DNA of 64,000 bases from Escherichia phage vb_EcoM-VR5: the sequence record NC_028881.1, one strand, 5' to 3'. Below, piece by piece: positions 1 through 9,230 of this stretch. Below the pieces are notes generated by a model that saw nothing but the letters and a program-made list of their open reading frames with translations, made no database searches and was not told the DNA's origin. The translations under genes and the position numbers were made by a program. Numbering within the stretch: the first letter of the stretch is position 1; every line of letters starts with the position of its first letter.

Positions 1-179
1 TCGTCACCAGAGAACCCTAGTATAGGCTCACCATGAGTATGATACATATGATGATGCATTGAGAGGTCGCATTTATAAAACATCTCACGTTTACCACGAA
101 TGAACAAGAAAGCTTGTCCGTTCATATAGAATTCTTTATCTGTTTTCAAAAGATATTTGAATACTGAATCTTTGTGCAT
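1..179 (-). CDS. Hypothetical protein, partial (continues beyond the window start)
   Basis: ATG at 177-179 (reverse strand) preceded by AGGAGGA; reading frame open to position 1 with no stop; not in the ORF track because it is truncated. Confidence 0.4.
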   Translation of the reverse strand, partial: MHKDSVFKYLLKTDKEFYMNGQAFLFIRGKREMFYKCDLSMHHHMYHTHGEPILGFSGD

Positions 180-217
180 AAGTCCTCCTACCACATCCGT
201 GTGATTATTATATCCTA

Positions 218-442
218 TTAACAGCTACTTGGATACCAGATTTTACCATCAGCTTGGGCAACGAAGGTGCGGCCAGCTTCTTCACCATAACAAGAGCTAT
301 TCAGCCAATCTTCAAGACGAACTTCGCCGTCATAATCGTCGAGCTCGACACCGAAATTTTGGGCAGAAGCCATATCTTTAACTTTCTTATACAATGCGGC
401 CAGTTCAAGAGCAGCTTTTTCCAATTCATTAATATCAGACAT
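218..442 (-). CDS. Small protein, member A of a five-gene paralog array (C-terminus ...WYPSSC)
   Basis: 74 aa ORF; tight tandem packing with the neighbours; shared C-terminal aromatic-SS-x-C tail. Confidence 0.55.
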   Translation of the reverse strand: MSDINELEKAALELAALYKKVKDMASAQNFGVELDDYDGEVRLEDWLNSSCYGEEAGRTFVAQADGKIWYPSSC

Positions 443-451
443 TTTTATTCC

Positions 452-673
452 TTAGCAAGACATAGAGGAGGTAAACCAAAAACCTTCACCATCATTAATA
501 CCATAATCACTGCGAACCCAGTCGTAATCTTCGTACTCAGGATTCTTCGGTGAAATATATTGTCCACGACCAGAAACATGGAAATCTTCACCAGTTTCAT
601 CAGCCACGCTCTGACCTTCACGAACTAAAGCTCGGATTTGGTCTTCAATTTCTCTAACAGTTTTAGTAGTCAT
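452..673 (-). CDS. Small protein, paralog B (C-terminus ...FWFTSSMSC)
   Basis: 73 aa ORF, about 10 nt from its neighbours; conserved C-terminal tail. Confidence 0.55.
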   Translation of the reverse strand: MTTKTVREIEDQIRALVREGQSVADETGEDFHVSGRGQYISPKNPEYEDYDWVRSDYGINDGEGFWFTSSMSC

Positions 674-682
674 TTTATTACC

Positions 683-880
683 TTAACATTCGTAAGAGGA
701 GGACACCCAAGAGGTACCGCTAATAGTAATGCATCCATTATAAAGCTCAATATGCCTGTCTAAGTCACGAACACCATCGATATAGATATCAGCTTCTTCA
801 CGTTCTTCTTTACAAATCTGGATAACATTTTCAATAGCCGCTTTAGCAGTACGGATTGCACAATCTAATTCACGAGACAT
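683..880 (-). CDS. Small protein, paralog C (C-terminus ...SWVSSSYEC)
   Basis: 65 aa ORF; conserved C-terminal WVSSSxEC. Confidence 0.55.
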   Translation of the reverse strand: MSRELDCAIRTAKAAIENVIQICKEEREEADIYIDGVRDLDRHIELYNGCITISGTSWVSSSYEC

Positions 881-889
881 AATATTTCC

Positions 890-1171
890 TTAACATTCAG
901 AAGAAGAGGACACCCAACCACCTTTTTCAAGGTCGGTGGTGTAGTCGTGGGTGTTAACGATAGCGTATTGAGGCTCACCATAGTTTTCCCAATGAGCAAG
1001 GTCGGCTTTCAGGGCGCCAGGAGAATAATAGTCACCGCCCATACCGCGAGCAGGGTATATATTAAAATGAGTCTCATATTTGTCTGCAATTTCCTCAGCT
1101 CGGCGAATAGCTTTATGGATTTCATTTACTGCGTTAGCCAGTTCTTTATTTTTACTGTAATCGTTCATCAT
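890..1171 (-). CDS. Small protein, paralog D (C-terminus ...GWVSSSSEC)
   Basis: 93 aa ORF; conserved C-terminal tail. Confidence 0.55.
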   Translation of the reverse strand: MMNDYSKNKELANAVNEIHKAIRRAEEIADKYETHFNIYPARGMGGDYYSPGALKADLAHWENYGEPQYAIVNTHDYTTDLEKGGWVSSSSEC

Positions 1172-1180
1172 AATAAACCC

Positions 1181-1474
1181 TTAACACATTTGAGAAGAGG
1201 ACACCCATGCACCAGAAGTAACGATACCGTTTTCATCGACTTCGCCACCATTGTTTTCAATTTCATCACGCATCCAGCGAGAGCATTCATAACCAACCGG
1301 ATAATAGGTGCGTCCAGAACCATATTCACCTACATCAAACGAGACACCATACTTATCTGCAATAATAGTAGCTTCATTCTCGATATGGTCTTGGGCCCGA
1401 AGAAGTTTGCTGATAGCGTCCGTTGCGGTTTGAACGTCATTGTATTCAGGGATAGCGATTTCAATTTTATTCAT
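1181..1474 (-). CDS. Small protein, paralog E (C-terminus ...AWVSSSQMC)
   Basis: 97 aa ORF; conserved C-terminal tail. Confidence 0.55.
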   Translation of the reverse strand: MNKIEIAIPEYNDVQTATDAISKLLRAQDHIENEATIIADKYGVSFDVGEYGSGRTYYPVGYECSRWMRDEIENNGGEVDENGIVTSGAWVSSSQMC

Positions 1475-1824
1475 GATTTACATTCCTTAATAAAGGTTTC
1501 AAGTTCATTACATTTGGTTTGTTTTACATACTCATTATAATTAGCCATAGCTAAAGCATATCTCTTACGGGCCGGGGCATTCAAGGCGTTTGTGTAACAG
1601 ATATCATACACAACCGGGATAAAATAGGCCACAACAGCCGGAGCAATTATCATAAAGAAGCCCATCTCAATAGGCATGACTCCCTCGATTGCCGCCATAA
1701 CCGTGGTCATTACCAGACCAACTAGACCGCCGAGCATACCGGTAGCAAGGCCTGCAAATAAAGTAATGGCTATATCGTAATCGGCTAATGCGTAACTAGG
1801 GTCGGTTTTACTAGGCTTATGCAT
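1471..1824 (-). CDS. Predicted small membrane protein (hydrophobic core, 2-3 TM segments)
   Basis: ORF 1471..1842; start probably the internal Met (MHKPSK) at 1824, which minimises overlap with the upstream gene; long hydrophobic stretch. Confidence 0.45.
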   Translation of the reverse strand: MHKPSKTDPSYALADYDIAITLFAGLATGMLGGLVGLVMTTVMAAIEGVMPIEMGFFMIIAPAVVAYFIPVVYDICYTNALNAPARKRYALAMANYNEYVKQTKCNELETFIKECKS

Positions 1825-2353
1825 TTTGGGCCTCTTTAGCATATTCGCGGCATTCTTTAATAAAACGATTAAGCTTACGTTGCTGTTTACGACTTTCTAA
1901 TGTATACTCGTCGGCCAAAATAATAAGCTCACCTTTATCGTAATTTTTAATATCAGAGTAAGATGGCCGCCGGTCAACCATTCCAAATAAATCACCGTTT
2001 TCTAGCGCCGCATAGCATACTAAATGATAATCGTCATCAGCATTAATAAGCTGCTTATAATCGCTAGGTTCGTTTAAAGCGTACACCGAATATCTTACTC
2101 CGGCGAATTCAACTCGCTTTATATCTAATCCAAGGTCAATAATTTCTAAAGCTTCTGCAAAAGAAAGGTCTTCTGCTAAAGCAAAAATAAAAGGTAATTT
2201 AGTAGTATAGCTACGGTTATTTGTTCTGCTTAAGAAATCATTAGAATAACCTAGGTCCTGGCGAATTCTATAAAGAACTGCATTAGTTTCATGGGCAAGA
2301 CCGCTATGTTTAAACCAATCAATATTTGATATAAGGTCATCATATAAGCTCAT
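1817..2353 (-). CDS. Hypothetical protein (178 aa)
   Basis: ORF with GGAGAGGAGA ribosome-binding site upstream of the ATG at 2353. Confidence 0.5.
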   Translation of the reverse strand: MSLYDDLISNIDWFKHSGLAHETNAVLYRIRQDLGYSNDFLSRTNNRSYTTKLPFIFALAEDLSFAEALEIIDLGLDIKRVEFAGVRYSVYALNEPSDYKQLINADDDYHLVCYAALENGDLFGMVDRRPSYSDIKNYDKGELIILADEYTLESRKQQRKLNRFIKECREYAKEAQNA

Positions 2354-2376
2354 AATATTCTCCTCTCCTCCAAAGA

Positions 2377-2394
2377 GGGAGACCGAAGTCTCCC
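2377..2394 (-). terminator. Stem-loop terminator (GGGAGAC-tetraloop-GTCTCCC)
   Basis: GC-rich hairpin with 4-nt loop directly downstream of the 2402..2995 gene. Confidence 0.45.
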
Positions 2395-2401
2395 AGTAAC
2401 A

Positions 2402-2995
2402 TTACTTAAGTGAATTGATGTAGTCTTCGATATCAGCTGAAGTCGTATCCATTCCAACTTGAGGGCCTTTAAACGTTTCTACACGCATCAGGGTATCTTC
2501 AATATCAATCTTAGTCAGTGCAGCGATTTCAACAACATCGTCAGCAGTAGCAATACCTAATGCAGCCATATTACGAGTTTCACGGATGTATTCAAGCTTA
2601 ACTGCTAGTTCTTGTCGAGAGTCATCAAGTTCCTTAACCTTAAGCTTGATTTCATTACGCATTTCGATATAATCGTCGGCTTTCTTACGAAGTTGAGTAG
2701 CTGTACGACGATAAAGGAGGCCGAGTTTAGCATGTACCTGGACATCGGCACCTTCAGCAATCAATTTACGGATTTCACGTTCTTTAGAACTAGCCAGTTG
2801 GTCCTTTTCGTTAGCGAGTTCACGAATACGTTTTTCTTCACTTACAGACTTAACGTGAGCAGTCTGGAGCTCGGTAATTTTATCAATTAGAGTAGAAGCA
2901 GCTTTAGTGTATTGGTCTTCAATTGACAGGTTCTGGGCCATTGCGGTACCAAGTTTAGAGCGGATGAATTCAACGATTTTCTTTAAAGTGTTCAT
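2402..2995 (-). CDS. Coiled-coil protein, possibly PspA/IM30-like
   Basis: 197 aa, predicted almost entirely heptad-rich alpha-helix; N-terminal amphipathic helix followed by long charged coiled coil resembling the PspA/Vipp1 pattern; driven by early promoter P1. Confidence 0.45.
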
Positions 2996-3033
2996 AGTAT
3001 TTCCTTCAGTGGTTGTTTCGTTTTGATAGGTCT

Positions 3034-3096: not shown

Positions 3097-3118
3097 AAAG
3101 GAGACCGAAGTCTCCTTT
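3097..3118 (-). terminator. Stem-loop terminator
   Basis: AAAGGAGAC-CGAA-GTCTCCTTT hairpin followed by a T-run on the minus strand. Confidence 0.5.
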
Positions 3119-3153: not shown

Positions 3154-3708
3154 TCAGTTCTTGTAGAACCGGAATGGGTTTATGTGGAAGGCTAACATGG
3201 CTTTATGGATTTTACGAGACAAAAGACTCTTAAGCTTCCAGCCACAGTACACGCGAAGGTAAAATGTGATTCCACCAACCTTAAGATAAGGAACTGAAGC
3301 AAATACACCCCAGGCATCATCATTCCACATCCATAACCAACCATGGTGAGCTTTATCAGGAGAACCAGATTCTACATCAGGATTACCGCGATAATGGAAT
3401 TCTGAACTACAATCACGTCCTAGTTTATGGTAAGCAAAGTTATAAGCTTTATTTCGCCATAGCCAAGCTACTCTCTGGAGATAAACACCACCAGGCATTT
3501 TCCTGATTTTAGCCCAACGTTTAATATGACCTTTGTCGCCGTCAATTGGATTATCGTATGTCATCATCCAATCAAAGCCATAAGGCAATTTACCGGTCTT
3601 TTTATTGTAGAAAGGAACTACAAAAGGCGCAAGGATAACGGCTAGAACCATAGAGATAAAATCTAGTGGGACCAACAGAATCCAACTCAAATATTTTAAA
3701 AGTTTCAT
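3154..3708 (-). CDS. Membrane-anchored protein (N-terminal TM helix, Trp/His-rich C-terminal domain); late-expressed
   Basis: 184 aa ORF; exact TATAAATA on the minus strand (3735-3742) about 27 nt upstream of the ATG. Confidence 0.55.
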   Translation of the reverse strand: MKLLKYLSWILLVPLDFISMVLAVILAPFVVPFYNKKTGKLPYGFDWMMTYDNPIDGDKGHIKRWAKIRKMPGGVYLQRVAWLWRNKAYNFAYHKLGRDCSSEFHYRGNPDVESGSPDKAHHGWLWMWNDDAWGVFASVPYLKVGGITFYLRVYCGWKLKSLLSRKIHKAMLAFHINPFRFYKN

Positions 3709-3941: not shown

Positions 3942-4017
3942 TGGTCGAGACAGTAGGGATCGAACCTACGACCTAGGACTTAGAAGGTCCTTGCTCTTCC
4001 TTCTGAGCTATGCCTCG
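3942..4017 (-). tRNA. tRNA-Arg (anticodon UCU), CCA encoded
   Basis: Manual cloverleaf: acceptor CGAGGCA/TGTCTCG, D-stem GCTC/GAGC, anticodon stem AGGAC/GTCCT with loop CTTCTAA, T-arm GTAGG-TTCGATC-CCTAC, 3' ACCA. Confidence 0.8.
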
Positions 4018-4021
4018 TGTT

Positions 4022-4150
4022 TGTTCATAGCGGGGTGGACTCGAACCACCAATATTAAGTCACTCATGCTCCAAGCATGCTAGGGCACTTACCCCGGACG
4101 GAATCGAACCGCATCTACAATACCTATCGCCATGATAATTTAAAATAAGT
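4022..4150 (-). ncRNA. tRNA-like elements (two T-arm-like motifs) that do not fold into canonical cloverleafs; degenerate tRNAs or stable RNA
   Basis: GGTGG-TTCGAGT-CCACC and TGCGG-TTCGATT-CCGTC T-arm-like motifs, but no matching acceptor stems found by hand; includes a CATGC-TTGGA-GCATG hairpin. Confidence 0.3.
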
Positions 4151-4151
4151 T

Positions 4152-4225
4152 TGGTGGCCCTGGGTGGAATCGAACCACCATCCAGCGATTATGAGTCGCT
4201 CGCTTGACCGTCCAGCTACAGGGCC
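4152..4225 (-). tRNA. tRNA with anticodon CAU (Met or lysidine-modified Ile), CCA encoded
   Basis: Acceptor GGCCCTG/CAGGGCC (perfect 7 bp), anticodon stem AGCGA/TCGCT with loop CTCATAA, T-arm GGTGG-TTCGATT-CCACC, 3' ACCA. Confidence 0.75.
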
Positions 4226-4774: not shown

Positions 4775-5064
4775 TAAAATATACTCGCATATTGATGTTT
4801 GATTATATCAAGACCTAAAGGATTTTTAAAAATATCATAATCCTCTGGACCTGTTTCAGTTTCAATAAAGAAATTAAAATTCACAGTATTGAATTTACGG
4901 TCTTCCTTAACCAGTTTAACATTAGAATGACTACGACCTATTTCCAAACGTTCAACTTCAAAACAAGTTAAGATGCCATAATCATCAATCAACTGCTTTG
5001 CGGCATCTTGGTCTGATTTATACCCGTTATTAGCCTTGTCACCTATCGTAGCATAAAGAATCAT
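4774..5064 (-). CDS. Hypothetical protein (96 aa)
   Basis: ORF, start overlaps the stop of the upstream gene. Confidence 0.5.
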   Translation of the reverse strand: MILYATIGDKANNGYKSDQDAAKQLIDDYGILTCFEVERLEIGRSHSNVKLVKEDRKFNTVNFNFFIETETGPEDYDIFKNPLGLDIIKHQYASIF

Positions 5065-5066
5065 AA

Positions 5067-5447
5067 TTAACCTTCATCAACAATAGTATGGGTATTAGCA
5101 TTAACAATCTGCCACCAGTCAAAACGGTTAGAACCATATTGAGGCTTATTCTCGTTTTCTTTAATGATATCACGCAGTTCATCTTCGGTAGCGGCTTTTG
5201 CGATTAGGTCTGCATAACCGCCACGGGGATAATAGCTATCGCCAGCAAAGAGTAAAAAGTTTGTTTTGATATTCTTGAATTCTTCAAGAGTAATAACCGT
5301 TCCAGATGGTTGAACAATATCTACGTAACTATATCCTAATTTCTGGGCTTCATTTACTGCTTCAAGCAGGGTGTCATGGGCCCATCCGATTTGACAATCC
5401 GGTTTTTCAGATGGATTTGCTTGATAATCTGCGTACACTTTATACAT
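5067..5447 (-). CDS. Hypothetical protein (about 126 aa)
   Basis: ORF 5067..5495; start probably MYKVYADY at 5447 with AAAGGTGAG ribosome-binding site, stop of the upstream gene overlapping. Confidence 0.5.
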   Translation of the reverse strand: MYKVYADYQANPSEKPDCQIGWAHDTLLEAVNEAQKLGYSYVDIVQPSGTVITLEEFKNIKTNFLLFAGDSYYPRGGYADLIAKAATEDELRDIIKENENKPQYGSNRFDWWQIVNANTHTIVDEG

Positions 5448-5634: not shown

Positions 5635-5670
5635 TTTATTCTCCAATCACTCATTTGTTTTGATAGGGCT

Positions 5671-5700
5671 ATAGTATCACCACTAGAGCCCATTGTAAAC
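5671..5700 (-). promoter_or_regulatory. Early promoter P2 (GTTTAC-N18-TACTAT) with conserved leader
   Basis: Reverse strand GTTTACA...TACTATAGCCCTATCAAAAC. Confidence 0.55.
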
Positions 5701-5702
5701 AA

Positions 5703-5975
5703 TTATTTTAGATAAATTGCATATTTTTTATAGCCAGCTGTCTCGTGGCGCAACCCTTTGTCATTAGCAAAGCGTTCAATATTATTAATTTGATTTTGGT
5801 CGAGTTCTGAAATATCAAATACAAAAAAGTTTCGCTTATTGCCTAAAGTTACATGATTAGTCAAATCGATGTTATAGAGATGATTTATATTATCAATCAT
5901 GGCCTTAACAGATTTGCTAATTTTTACTTCTTCATTAAGAATAGATTCAGCGATAAATTCTTGATAGGTTTTCAT
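5703..5975 (-). CDS. Internal-protein-like capsid-packaged protein with N-terminal capsid-targeting sequence MKTYQEFIAE
   Basis: ORF 5703..5987; internal Met gives MKTYQEFIAE, matching the T4 internal-protein capsid-targeting sequence that the prohead protease cleaves after Glu. Confidence 0.65.
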   Translation of the reverse strand: MKTYQEFIAESILNEEVKISKSVKAMIDNINHLYNIDLTNHVTLGNKRNFFVFDISELDQNQINNIERFANDKGLRHETAGYKKYAIYLK

Positions 5976-6275: not shown

Positions 6276-6953
<678 letters not shown>

Positions 6954-6961
<8 letters not shown>

Positions 6962-7715
6962 TTTTATTTCCTAATAATTTATCAATAGTAGTGTATAGTT
7001 CAGAAAGGGTTCCGTTATTTTCAACAACAACGTCACCAGGTAAAATTGGTAGACCCGCTTCAGTAATGTGCGAGTCTTGTACTTGACCGGTATCAGCGCG
7101 AACTACGTGAATAATCGTAGCACCCATCGCCCTGAGCGAATCAATTTCATGTGTTTGACGAACATCAGGTACGACATAGTATTTCGCATCAGAATATATT
7201 TTATCAAAATAGTCTAAAGCGAATAACTTAACCCAATACATTTTATCAAATTGGTTAACAATAATATCGGTCCCAAGGGTCTGCATGAGACGACGTACTG
7301 ACCAATTGTTAATACTATTTATTACTTCAAACAGATGGTCTTTTGTTTCTTCAGACAAATACTGGACTGGGGTAAGACCATAATGATATGCAGTACGGAC
7401 ATCAATTCCGGGAATAGGAAGCATATTATTCAGTTTAACGATAGCATGTTCAAAGATGTCAATAACATCATATGGTTTTAAAGGAAGGATTTCTTCGCGG
7501 TTGTATCCAATACCTTCAAAACAGTTAAAATCTAGTTTAGGCATATAACTACGATCGAATACAGGGTCATCAGATATATATTCGTAGGCTTCTGCTAGAT
7601 ACTTTTTAATAGGCCCAGCGAGCTGGAATTTAACAGAATCCATATTCTCAATTACATAGTTAGCAACGGTGTCCTTACCGCTACGTTTGAGTCCTACAAT
7701 TGATATTAGTTTCAT
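6954..7715 (-). CDS. 1: gp1 deoxynucleoside monophosphate kinase
   Basis: 253 aa; N-terminal P-loop GLKRSGKDT; position between 57A and 3. Confidence 0.85.
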
Positions 7716-8305
7716 TATTTTCTCATAGATGGATGCATAGACATACGTGCCACACGTTGTTCGGCATACGAATCAATTTGTGGACGACCTGTAACTATTG
7801 TACCATCTATTTCTACAGCAAATGACTTAAAGTTGAATGTTGCCGTAGCGATTATCGCAGGGTCAGAATCTTCTTTATAAGAGTACTGAATCTCGGAAAG
7901 GTCTGACGGCCACCCACCATAGTAATGGATGCTCATTACGATTTTCTGTTTGTTGTTATCAAGGATATGAAGCGTAATCGCTTCAGGCAGGCCTTTAGGA
8001 TGCCAGGCTTCGGATTCATGTGTTACATAGTTGTTTAATGATAGCATCCATTTATAAATGTCCAGCCATGATTTCAGTTCTTTGTCTACAAGAAAGTTTA
8101 CAATCAAGGGATCGAATTCTACAGTAGAACCTGGCAGCTTAGCACGATGTATGCCCTGGGTCGATCCTGGGACATCTGAAATCGGAATATGGATACCTGG
8201 TAGTGTTACATCTTGCACGTTTAATTTGAATGCCTGCGTCATTCCTGCGTCACTAACCTCTAAGATAAAGTTAGTAGTGTTAGTTTGGTTAAATAAACCG
8301 TTCAT
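7715..8305 (-). CDS. 3: gp3 tail completion / sheath stabiliser protein
   Basis: 196 aa; conserved T4 order 1-3-2-4. Confidence 0.7.
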   Translation of the reverse strand: MNGLFNQTNTTNFILEVSDAGMTQAFKLNVQDVTLPGIHIPISDVPGSTQGIHRAKLPGSTVEFDPLIVNFLVDKELKSWLDIYKWMLSLNNYVTHESEAWHPKGLPEAITLHILDNNKQKIVMSIHYYGGWPSDLSEIQYSYKEDSDPAIIATATFNFKSFAVEIDGTIVTGRPQIDSYAEQRVARMSMHPSMRK

Positions 8306-8393
8306 AGTATTCCTATATTGCTTAAACCCTAGCCAGTGTATAATGGTCCTAGGTCTGTTCCATTCAATAACTGGCTGGGATAATAGATTAAGA

Positions 8394-9230
8394 TTATGCG
8401 TTCTTCCAAACTTTCTGAGCTGAGTAACGCTTGCCTTTAGACATGAACTGCTGGAGAGGCATCATTACTACATTAGCCCAATCAGATGGTTTTATCTCTA
8501 CCAAAGGACCTTTTATATTTCCTGGGATATAAGCTTTAATCATCATGTCGGCACCAGAGAATCCTTTAACTTTACTCCAATCTATTTTTAATTTCGTCGA
8601 GTTAGTAATGGTCGGCGTGCTCGCGTATTGCTTCAGCAATTCTTCTAGAAATTGTTGGCGTGCTTTAGGTGGAATATAGTGTAAGTTCAACCCGTACATA
8701 AGATTATGCTTACCAAGCCCTAGATAAATGATTAAAGGATATTTGTCCCAATACGGTAATGTATCCTTGTGTTTGGCATCATAGATATAAGCATAAAGCT
8801 TACCAGGAGATGGTTTAGACACCTGGTGTCCACGAATTCCTTTCTTTAATGTTTCTGTAAACCATTTAGCCGATTTATTGTTTACAGCAGCACCTTCGTT
8901 TGCAATCTTATCACGAATACTCTTTCTAAAACTATTTACCAAAATTAATTGTCGTTCAGCTTTGGTTAATTTATTGCCAGGTTTCTTCTGAAGTTTTTCG
9001 ACTTGTACAGCGGTTTTAATTCGACTCGAGTATCGAGACATCGCAGATGTAAAGCTAGAATACTTGATGCCTTTATCTTCAGCGAATTTCTTAGCCGAGA
9101 CACCTTTAGCCTTAGCTTTGGCATATTCAACACCCAAAGCTATCCATTGTTGTTCTGAACGAGTAGGCTTAGAACCTTTTGTGGTTTCAGTAGCCTCATT
9201 GATGTAGGAAAATATACTCATCCTTTCCAT
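8394..9230 (-). CDS. 2: gp2 DNA end-protector protein
   Basis: 278 aa basic protein; position between 3 and 4. Confidence 0.75.

Follow-up and report, generated by a model that had tools for sequence, protein, structure and literature searches.

Five consecutive minus-strand genes at the beginning of a 64,000-nt stretch of the Escherichia phage vb_EcoM-VR5 genome (NC_028881.1; this whole stretch is hereafter called the window) encode small proteins that all terminate in a Trp, a run of Ser residues and a final Cys. What maintains this tail, and what purpose do the proteins serve? The analysis described here favours, with a probability that we place at about 0.55, the reading that the array genes make up one half, the upstream one, of a conserved phage module of two parts, and that the tail shared by their products engages one enzyme, a predicted nucleotidyltransferase, as substrate, pseudo-substrate or adaptor.

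The shared tail is real and not a chance pattern. When the window was divided into stop-to-stop segments of at least 25 amino acids (aa) in all six frames, only 35 of the 1207 segments had a Cys as final residue and only these five ended in W..SS.{0,2}C. A profile of the family detected no further member in the rest of the window. The initial annotation had described five consecutive genes with a common ending, separated by about 10 nt. Their frames and stops turn out to be called correctly, so that the ending does not result from mis-calling, and the spacing is exactly 9 nt: at the junctions between the five open reading frames (ORFs), the stop codon is followed by 9 nt with an AAGG-type Shine-Dalgarno motif and then by ATG.

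The possibility had been raised from the outset that the conservation resides in the DNA, reflecting the embedded ribosome-binding sites and leaving the protein unconstrained. Such an artefact, arising from mis-called frames or from DNA- or RNA-level conservation around ribosome-binding sites or recombination repeats, would fit the finding that at four of five junctions the sequence TAAGG (stop plus GG) constitutes the Shine-Dalgarno of the downstream ORF, as well as the near identity of the tail codons in ORF1, ORF2 and ORF3, TGGGTGTCCTC(T/C)TCT. Codon usage in 151 distinct tail sequences from fetched phage loci argues otherwise. All six Ser codons (TCT, TCC, TCA, TCG, AGT and AGC) are used at the three Ser positions; at one of these, the counts are TCT 67, TCG 22, AGC 22, AGT 18, TCA 16 and TCC 6. 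The terminal Cys is encoded by TGC in 97 cases and by TGT in 54, and the Val and Gly codons vary too. Since passing from TCN to AGY requires two base changes, the switching between these codon types, along with the TGC/TGT variation, indicates that conservation acts on the protein. ORF5 itself uses AGT AGC, and in 50 of the tails, that of ORF5 included, the 18 bases examined downstream of the stop contain no ATG. Full-length matches to hidden Markov models and PHROG families, and a confident AlphaFold2 model (see below), also speak against an artefact. Altogether, the motif lies at the extreme C-terminus and is under selection at the protein level; the diversity of synonymous codons led us to reject the account based on DNA or ribosome-binding sites, and the chance that an artefact of any of these kinds explains the tail is negligible.

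To what family do the proteins belong? The profile search of the full proteins, proposed as a check in the initial annotation, places ORF1, ORF2, ORF4 and ORF5 in PHROG 899 and ORF3 in PHROG 4882, both labelled "unknown function". None of the five proteins has a match in Pfam, NCBIfam or PADLOC. When 1.84 billion representatives were searched exhaustively with HMMER, 132 clusters emerged, 128 of them small-protein clusters at 50% identity. The four long matches (P0035, P0049, P0084 and P0127) were judged spurious, as they are repeat proteins summing weak matches. Nearly all remaining clusters comprise proteins of 75-120 aa that match up to the last residue. Three blocks are conserved. The first is a helix at the N-terminus that closes with A-E-x-I-A-D; the second, a hairpin, reads Y-G-M-G-G-T-Y-Y-P and is joined by a variable acidic linker with many Trp and Tyr residues to the third, the tail G-x-W-[VI]-S-S-S-x-x-C. 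In a set of 139 sequences (small representatives plus close relatives), Trp at position -8 is found in 132, Ser at -5 in 136, Ser at -4 in 132 and the terminal Cys in 132. The mean isoelectric point is 4.6. In 76 of these sequences the terminal Cys is the sole Cys; thus, this residue is usually not the partner in an intramolecular disulphide. The motif is repeated internally in 16 of 116 representatives (1.2 expected by chance), and an internal copy containing the Cys occurs in six (0.08 expected), ORF5 being one such case. No domain fusions were found in a word-indexed protein search.

The proteins had originally been described as having divergent helical N-terminal regions. To separate the contribution of the tail from that of the body, we used a tail-removed family profile built without the window proteins or their close relatives. 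This profile still matches ORF1 (1.1e-18), ORF2 (1.5e-17) and ORF4 (1.8e-11). ORF5 aligns with the family at an hhalign probability of 93.5% over its full length and of 36% once the tail is removed, whereas ORF3 has nothing detectable in common beyond the 12-residue tail. The bodies are thus more than merely divergent helical regions: ORF1, ORF2 and ORF4 match without their tails, and ORF5, although a divergent member, matches at full length. Several T4-like lineages possess ORF3-type and ORF5-type proteins, and likewise orthologues of the other three ORFs. The subfamilies examined are thus old, and the array did not arise by recent amplification or duplication of its genes.

Structure prediction, likewise suggested in the initial annotation, was run on ORF2 with AlphaFold2 and an alignment of 117 sequences. 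It produced a confident alpha/beta fold that includes the tail (predicted local distance difference test score, 94.1; predicted template modelling score, 0.81). The model consists of a helix (residues 5-32), a hairpin (35-41/44-49) with the GMGG turn, a helix (51-64), a strand (84-88) and a terminal turn (89-92). The strand, G-G-W-V-S, is the third beta-strand and the turn reads S-S-S-E. As modelled, this third strand of the small sheet (G-x-W-V-S) would pack on the N-terminal helix. With the first half of the tail forming a core strand, the Ser-Ser...Cys tip would be the exposed part. A search of the PDB returned no relative by sequence or by fold, so that the small protein has no known fold match there, and the matches in BFVD are uncharacterised members of the same family only.

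A clue to function comes from gene neighbourhood. Downstream of the tailed genes, both phage RB69 and a jumbo phage of Erwinia encode a protein of about 310 aa with the Pfam domains DUF7277 and DUF7275; the two copies are 56% identical. We tested this association from both sides. On the enzyme side, a DUF7275 alignment served to collect 80 IMG/VR loci. In 72 of them, one or more small ORFs with the tail or a profile match lie upstream on the same strand, and no such ORF occurs anywhere else in the locus. Of the eight negatives, two carry variant tails directly upstream (NWDSSTC and EWESSESSEC) and one has too little upstream sequence to judge. The linkage still holds in 45-47 of the 52 divergent loci (39-57% identity to the query). 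When all ORFs were clustered, the tailed proteins emerged as the only real gene family recurring with the enzyme across unrelated contigs. On the small-protein side, loci were collected with a pattern independent of the tail, YGMGG[TS]YY; the enzyme lies no more than 1.4 kb downstream in 22 of 23, and the exception stops at a contig boundary. Each enzyme is accompanied by one to five tandem small paralogues, commonly two to five. In the closest relative of VR5, three unrelated small genes, the first of them that of PHROG 9796, lie between the array and the DUF7277-DUF7275 enzyme downstream. No nucleotidyltransferase is encoded inside the window; judging from relatives at 85-95% identity, the VR5 enzyme gene would lie some 0.9 kb beyond window position 1.

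The enzyme is found in 730 of 50,697 deposited phage records. A scan of 185,579 prokaryotic species, one genome each, gave four hits, all in contigs of metagenome-assembled genomes (one of 167 kb) and all with tailed proteins upstream; these hits are probably phage sequence. The pair is thus essentially restricted to phages. On a metagenomic contig labelled Thermosynechococcus (6547-8554 of the fetched locus), which is probably phage sequence binned into a metagenome-assembled genome, the module sits beside a permuted call resembling transfer-messenger RNA and seven tRNA genes.

What kind of enzyme is this? The DUF7277-DUF7275 protein (PHROG 2141) is predicted to adopt a nucleotidyltransferase fold of the MenT/AbiEii/ANT type. 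It carries the catalytic motifs hG[GS] and [DE]h[DE]h, a third carboxylate and a conserved Lys. G6, S7, D25, D27 and K125 are invariant in one alignment; in a second, S7, E69 and K125 are invariant and G6, D25 and D27 nearly so. Only DUF7275 and DUF7277 match in Pfam, with no match to DUF1814/AbiEii even at E-values up to 10, and no PADLOC model, that of AbiE included, recognises the enzyme. An extra helical C-terminal region of about 150 residues is strongly conserved. The column of His143, within K-T-M-x-[D/H]-I, holds Asp in many phages and His in Dhakavirus, Mosigvirus and related enterobacterial T4-like phages; going by the pattern of motifs, this Asp may be the counterpart of an essential MenT Asp (a candidate for D152). 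Enzymes of the ANT and Lnu types nucleotidylate hydroxyl groups. MenT toxins extend tRNA 3' ends with nucleotides under the control of partners encoded upstream (PMC10435456); one mode of control is auto-phosphorylation of a Ser/Thr in the active site, induced by the partner (PMC11375011). The literature searched contained no paper on the small-protein family or on the enzyme family.

That the linkage is two-way, confined to one strand and fixed in order across phages sharing nothing else argues for functional coupling of the small proteins with the enzyme. The paralogues have the tail in common (and, in most, the helix-hairpin scaffold) and differ in the acidic linker, and the motif is iterated in some, which favours the tail as the common handle. 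We thus envisage a module in which phage-restricted small acidic alpha/beta proteins, encoded upstream, would all engage one nucleotidyltransferase, encoded downstream, by means of the shared tail. We infer a physical interaction with the tail as the contact. The Ser hydroxyls of the tip, or the Cys thiol, would be presented to the enzyme, in or close to its active site, to serve as acceptor or pseudo-substrate, and the variable acidic body would give each paralogue a role of its own. Three outcomes could ensue: nucleotidylation of the tip (substrate), inhibition (antitoxin-like) or targeting (adaptor). The substrate model best fits the multiplicity of paralogues and the iteration of the motif. 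In its most specific form, the nucleotidyltransferase would covalently modify the Ser/Cys tip or prime nucleotide addition there, with the one to five paralogues acting as substrates or effectors that are armed or switched during infection. We advance this last proposal tentatively, as a conceivable rather than a probable chemistry.

Several observations weigh against the coupling of tail and enzyme. Tailed proteins are missing from one enzyme clade of the main group (L058, L086/88/91/109) and from the neighbourhood of distant enzyme homologues (28-34% identity; Gordonia, Limnohabitans, DSS3_PM1 and Vibrio phages), so the enzyme does not strictly need them. In the VR5 relatives, the array and the enzyme are not adjacent, as three unrelated small genes intervene. 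Many of the loci come from closely related T4-like phages and, as a result, the counts given above overstate the number of independent observations. The predicted fold incorporates the tail strand, so structural demands alone may explain some of the conservation of this strand. Finally, the invariant Cys is not accounted for.

How do other explanations fare? The enzyme could be a MenT-like, tRNA-modifying toxin used by the phage, and the small acidic proteins could bind and restrain it, as MenA1 does with MenT1, by filling an electropositive tRNA groove while the Ser/Cys tip blocks the active site. Such an antitoxin-like role agrees with the MenA-MenT analogy and with the acidity of the proteins; on balance, we find it unlikely, albeit worth keeping in mind. 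Alternatively, the small proteins might act alone against targets in the host or its defences, for instance by mimicking nucleic acids through their acidity or as metal- or thiol-dependent binders, with the tail kept for folding and for a chemistry of its own and the enzyme travelling as a syntenic passenger in a mobile cassette. The position of the tail strand within the predicted core, the accessory, hyperplastic T4-like region in which the array resides and the genes intercalated in Dhakavirus are all in keeping with independent effectors, as would be a likeness of the variable acidic linkers to mimic-type anti-restriction proteins. However, the linkage persists, with order and strand constant, among contigs that have no other gene family in common, from T4-like phages through phages of about 100 kb to jumbo phages of about 360 kb, which makes passive hitch-hiking unlikely; nor do the proteins show homology to known anti-defence or defence families in Pfam, NCBIfam or PADLOC. 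We consequently regard independent action as rather improbable. The initial annotation had envisaged either a diversifying effector or anti-defence family or a set of proteins recognised through their C-terminus by a shared partner. The latter idea now gains a candidate, the MenT/ANT-like enzyme designated by genomic linkage, while the former draws neither support nor refutation from the databases just named.

The arrangement of the array also brings to mind ribosomally synthesized and post-translationally modified peptides (RiPPs), in which case the Ser-Ser-Ser-x-x-Cys end would be a core peptide, cyclised (through lanthionine or an aminovinyl-cysteine-type link) and then released. Tandem precursor genes beside a single enzyme are typical of RiPP clusters, and the S-x-x-C-COOH spacing of the tail may resemble that of ends forming aminovinyl-cysteine. 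Against this, no dehydratase, cyclase, radical S-adenosylmethionine enzyme, flavin decarboxylase or protease recurs nearby, the nucleotidyltransferase alone doing so, and the model predicts globular proteins whose tail strand is buried within the fold, as opposed to peptides made of a leader and a core. The lack of a recurrent maturase, together with the confident globular model that includes the tail strand, led us to reject the RiPP reading, which we hold to be very unlikely.

Some distant homologues of the enzyme have other neighbours. In Limnohabitans phage DC31 (3719-4066 of the fetched locus) and Vibrio phage R16F (3608-3973 of the fetched locus), a conserved gene of about 115-120 aa (PHROG 18295/8206), whose product ends in KTITV[FY]E, lies immediately 3' of the enzyme, and tailed proteins are absent at both loci; this product may be an alternative partner of the enzyme. 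In roseophage DSS3_PM1 the enzyme adjoins RNA ligase 2 and a metallophosphoesterase (1-1546 of the fetched locus), and in some other distant lineages tRNA genes adjoin it (4847-5355 of locus L117 and 4067-4141 of the DC31 locus). These neighbours are hints of RNA-end chemistry. Genes for tRNA also occur near the enzyme in Dhakavirus, Gordonia and Limnohabitans phages. A tRNA-related role based on such proximity was considered and set aside as not general, because a tRNA gene lies within 5 kb at only 5 of 56 divergent loci.

The features of the window discussed here are listed in Table 1. Bases 1-3000 of the window are 94.6% identical to the Dhakavirus (T4-like, Straboviridae) vB_EcoM_ESCO10 and about 85% identical to JS98, JS10 and others. 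The array occupies an accessory, hyperplastic stretch between e.6 and e.2, near genes for tRNA-Arg and tRNA-Met. The start of ORF1 overlaps the stop of the membrane-protein gene (ATGA), which therefore belongs to the same translationally coupled string.

Table 1. Position and main characteristics of the array genes and neighbouring features (window coordinates).
Feature	Position	Strand	Characteristics
Next gene downstream	1..178	minus	5' part only; PHROG 9796; 109 aa in closest relative
ORF5	218..442	minus	74 aa; divergent; PHROG 899, E 5e-10; ending KIWYPSSC, motif codons 221-238
ORF5 internal motif copy	290-307	minus	DWLNSSC; second short copy beside terminal IWYPSSC
ORF4	452..673	minus	73 aa; PHROG 899, E 5.5e-14; tail GFWFTSSMSC, codons 455-478
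ORF3	683..880	minus	65 aa; PHROG 4882, E 3.6e-36; tail TSWVSSSYEC, codons 686-709
ORF2	890..1171	minus	93 aa; canonical member; PHROG 899, E 9.7e-22; tail GGWVSSSSEC, codons 893-916
ORF1	1181..1474	minus	97 aa; PHROG 899, E 1.8e-22; tail GAWVSSSQMC, tail codons 1184-1207
Upstream gene	1471..1842	minus	123 aa; predicted membrane protein; PHROG 2330; co-directional
tRNA-Arg(TCT)	3942-4017	minus	
tRNA-Met(CAT)	4152-4225	minus	

Orthologues of all five ORFs are present in JS10, one of them unannotated: the ORF4 orthologue, of 69 aa and ending in GFWFSSSMSC, is missing from the RefSeq record and maps at 5668-5877 of the fetched JS10 locus. JS10 holds three tRNA genes (Arg, Asn and Met) at the place matching that of the two in the window; VR5 is thus a phage without the tRNA-Asn. 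A 184-aa ORF at 3154-3708 (minus strand) encodes a full-length DUF7338 protein (E 2e-63), from an uncharacterised conserved phage family, and is flanked by a strong terminator-like hairpin (3097-3118). At the RB69 locus (2676-2982), RB69ORF139c (71 aa, ending in SQWYEK) and ORF138c resemble an ORF1 orthologue split by a frameshift. Intact ORF1-type versions of 101 aa exist in related Mosigvirus phages; hence, one paralogue appears to be decaying in the RB69 reference genome.

In ESCO10 (OM386655.1) and several other records, the deposited annotation is out of register and the names are spurious. Small tailed ORFs go under the names "DNA helicase", "group I intron endonuclease", "inhibitor of prohead protease" or "head outer capsid protein", and the nucleotidyltransferase under "baseplate hub subunit"; in other records, the ORF2 orthologue appears as "tail completion protein". 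The present analysis corrects database annotations in the region, "tail completion protein" and "DNA helicase" among them.

Both halves of the module are at present annotated merely as hypothetical (PHROG 899/4882 for the small proteins; PHROG 2141, DUF7275/7277, for the enzyme). Carriers of the enzyme include T4-like coliphages that are therapeutic candidates, phages of Klebsiella, Acinetobacter, Aeromonas and Pseudomonas, and jumbo phages. The linkage yields a defined, testable pair, and the invariant Ser-Ser...Cys tip is an evident site for mutagenesis and mass spectrometry. Nucleotidyltransferases of the MenT type are known as bacterial toxins that block tRNA; a phage-restricted branch with small partners of its own would carry this class to the viral side of the conflict. 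Should the tip indeed be nucleotidylated, large virulent phages would possess an unrecognised protein-modification system.

How does the module compare with known systems? With the MenAT and AbiE (DUF1814) pairs, it shares the order of genes, the small one being upstream, and its enzyme is alike in fold and motifs without belonging to DUF1814 at the sequence level. It differs in the extra helical C-terminal region of the enzyme and in its small proteins, to which MenA1, MenA3 and AbiEi are unrelated. Moreover, it is not a bicistronic toxin-antitoxin operon of bacteria: it is restricted to phages, and arrays of two to five partners are atypical of such operons. The MntA-HepT (MNT-HEPN) system offers another parallel, as it also consists of a minimal nucleotidyltransferase encoded beside a small protein. 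MntA, a Pol-beta-type enzyme, covalently nucleotidylates the adjacently encoded HepT on a hydroxyl side chain, and the chemistry proposed here for the Ser tip would match this AMPylation; the HEPN fold of the partner, the Tyr acceptor and the bacterial toxin-antitoxin context set that system apart. The substrates of ANT(2''), LnuA and JHP933 are antibiotics or unknown small molecules, and no protein partner is dedicated to these enzymes. Clusters of the ProcA/ProcM type, which specify RiPPs, resemble the phage loci in having tandem small genes, one short common element, a variable remainder and a single enzyme gene adjoining. In contrast, the phage proteins are predicted to fold as domains into which their common element, located at the C-terminus, is integrated; their enzyme is a nucleotidyltransferase, and the loci contain neither protease nor exporter. 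In conclusion, the nearest described systems are the MenAT/AbiE pairs and, as far as chemistry is concerned, MntA-HepT; the phage module would be another instance of a nucleotidyltransferase with a dedicated small partner, and there is a substantial chance that its chemistry is new.
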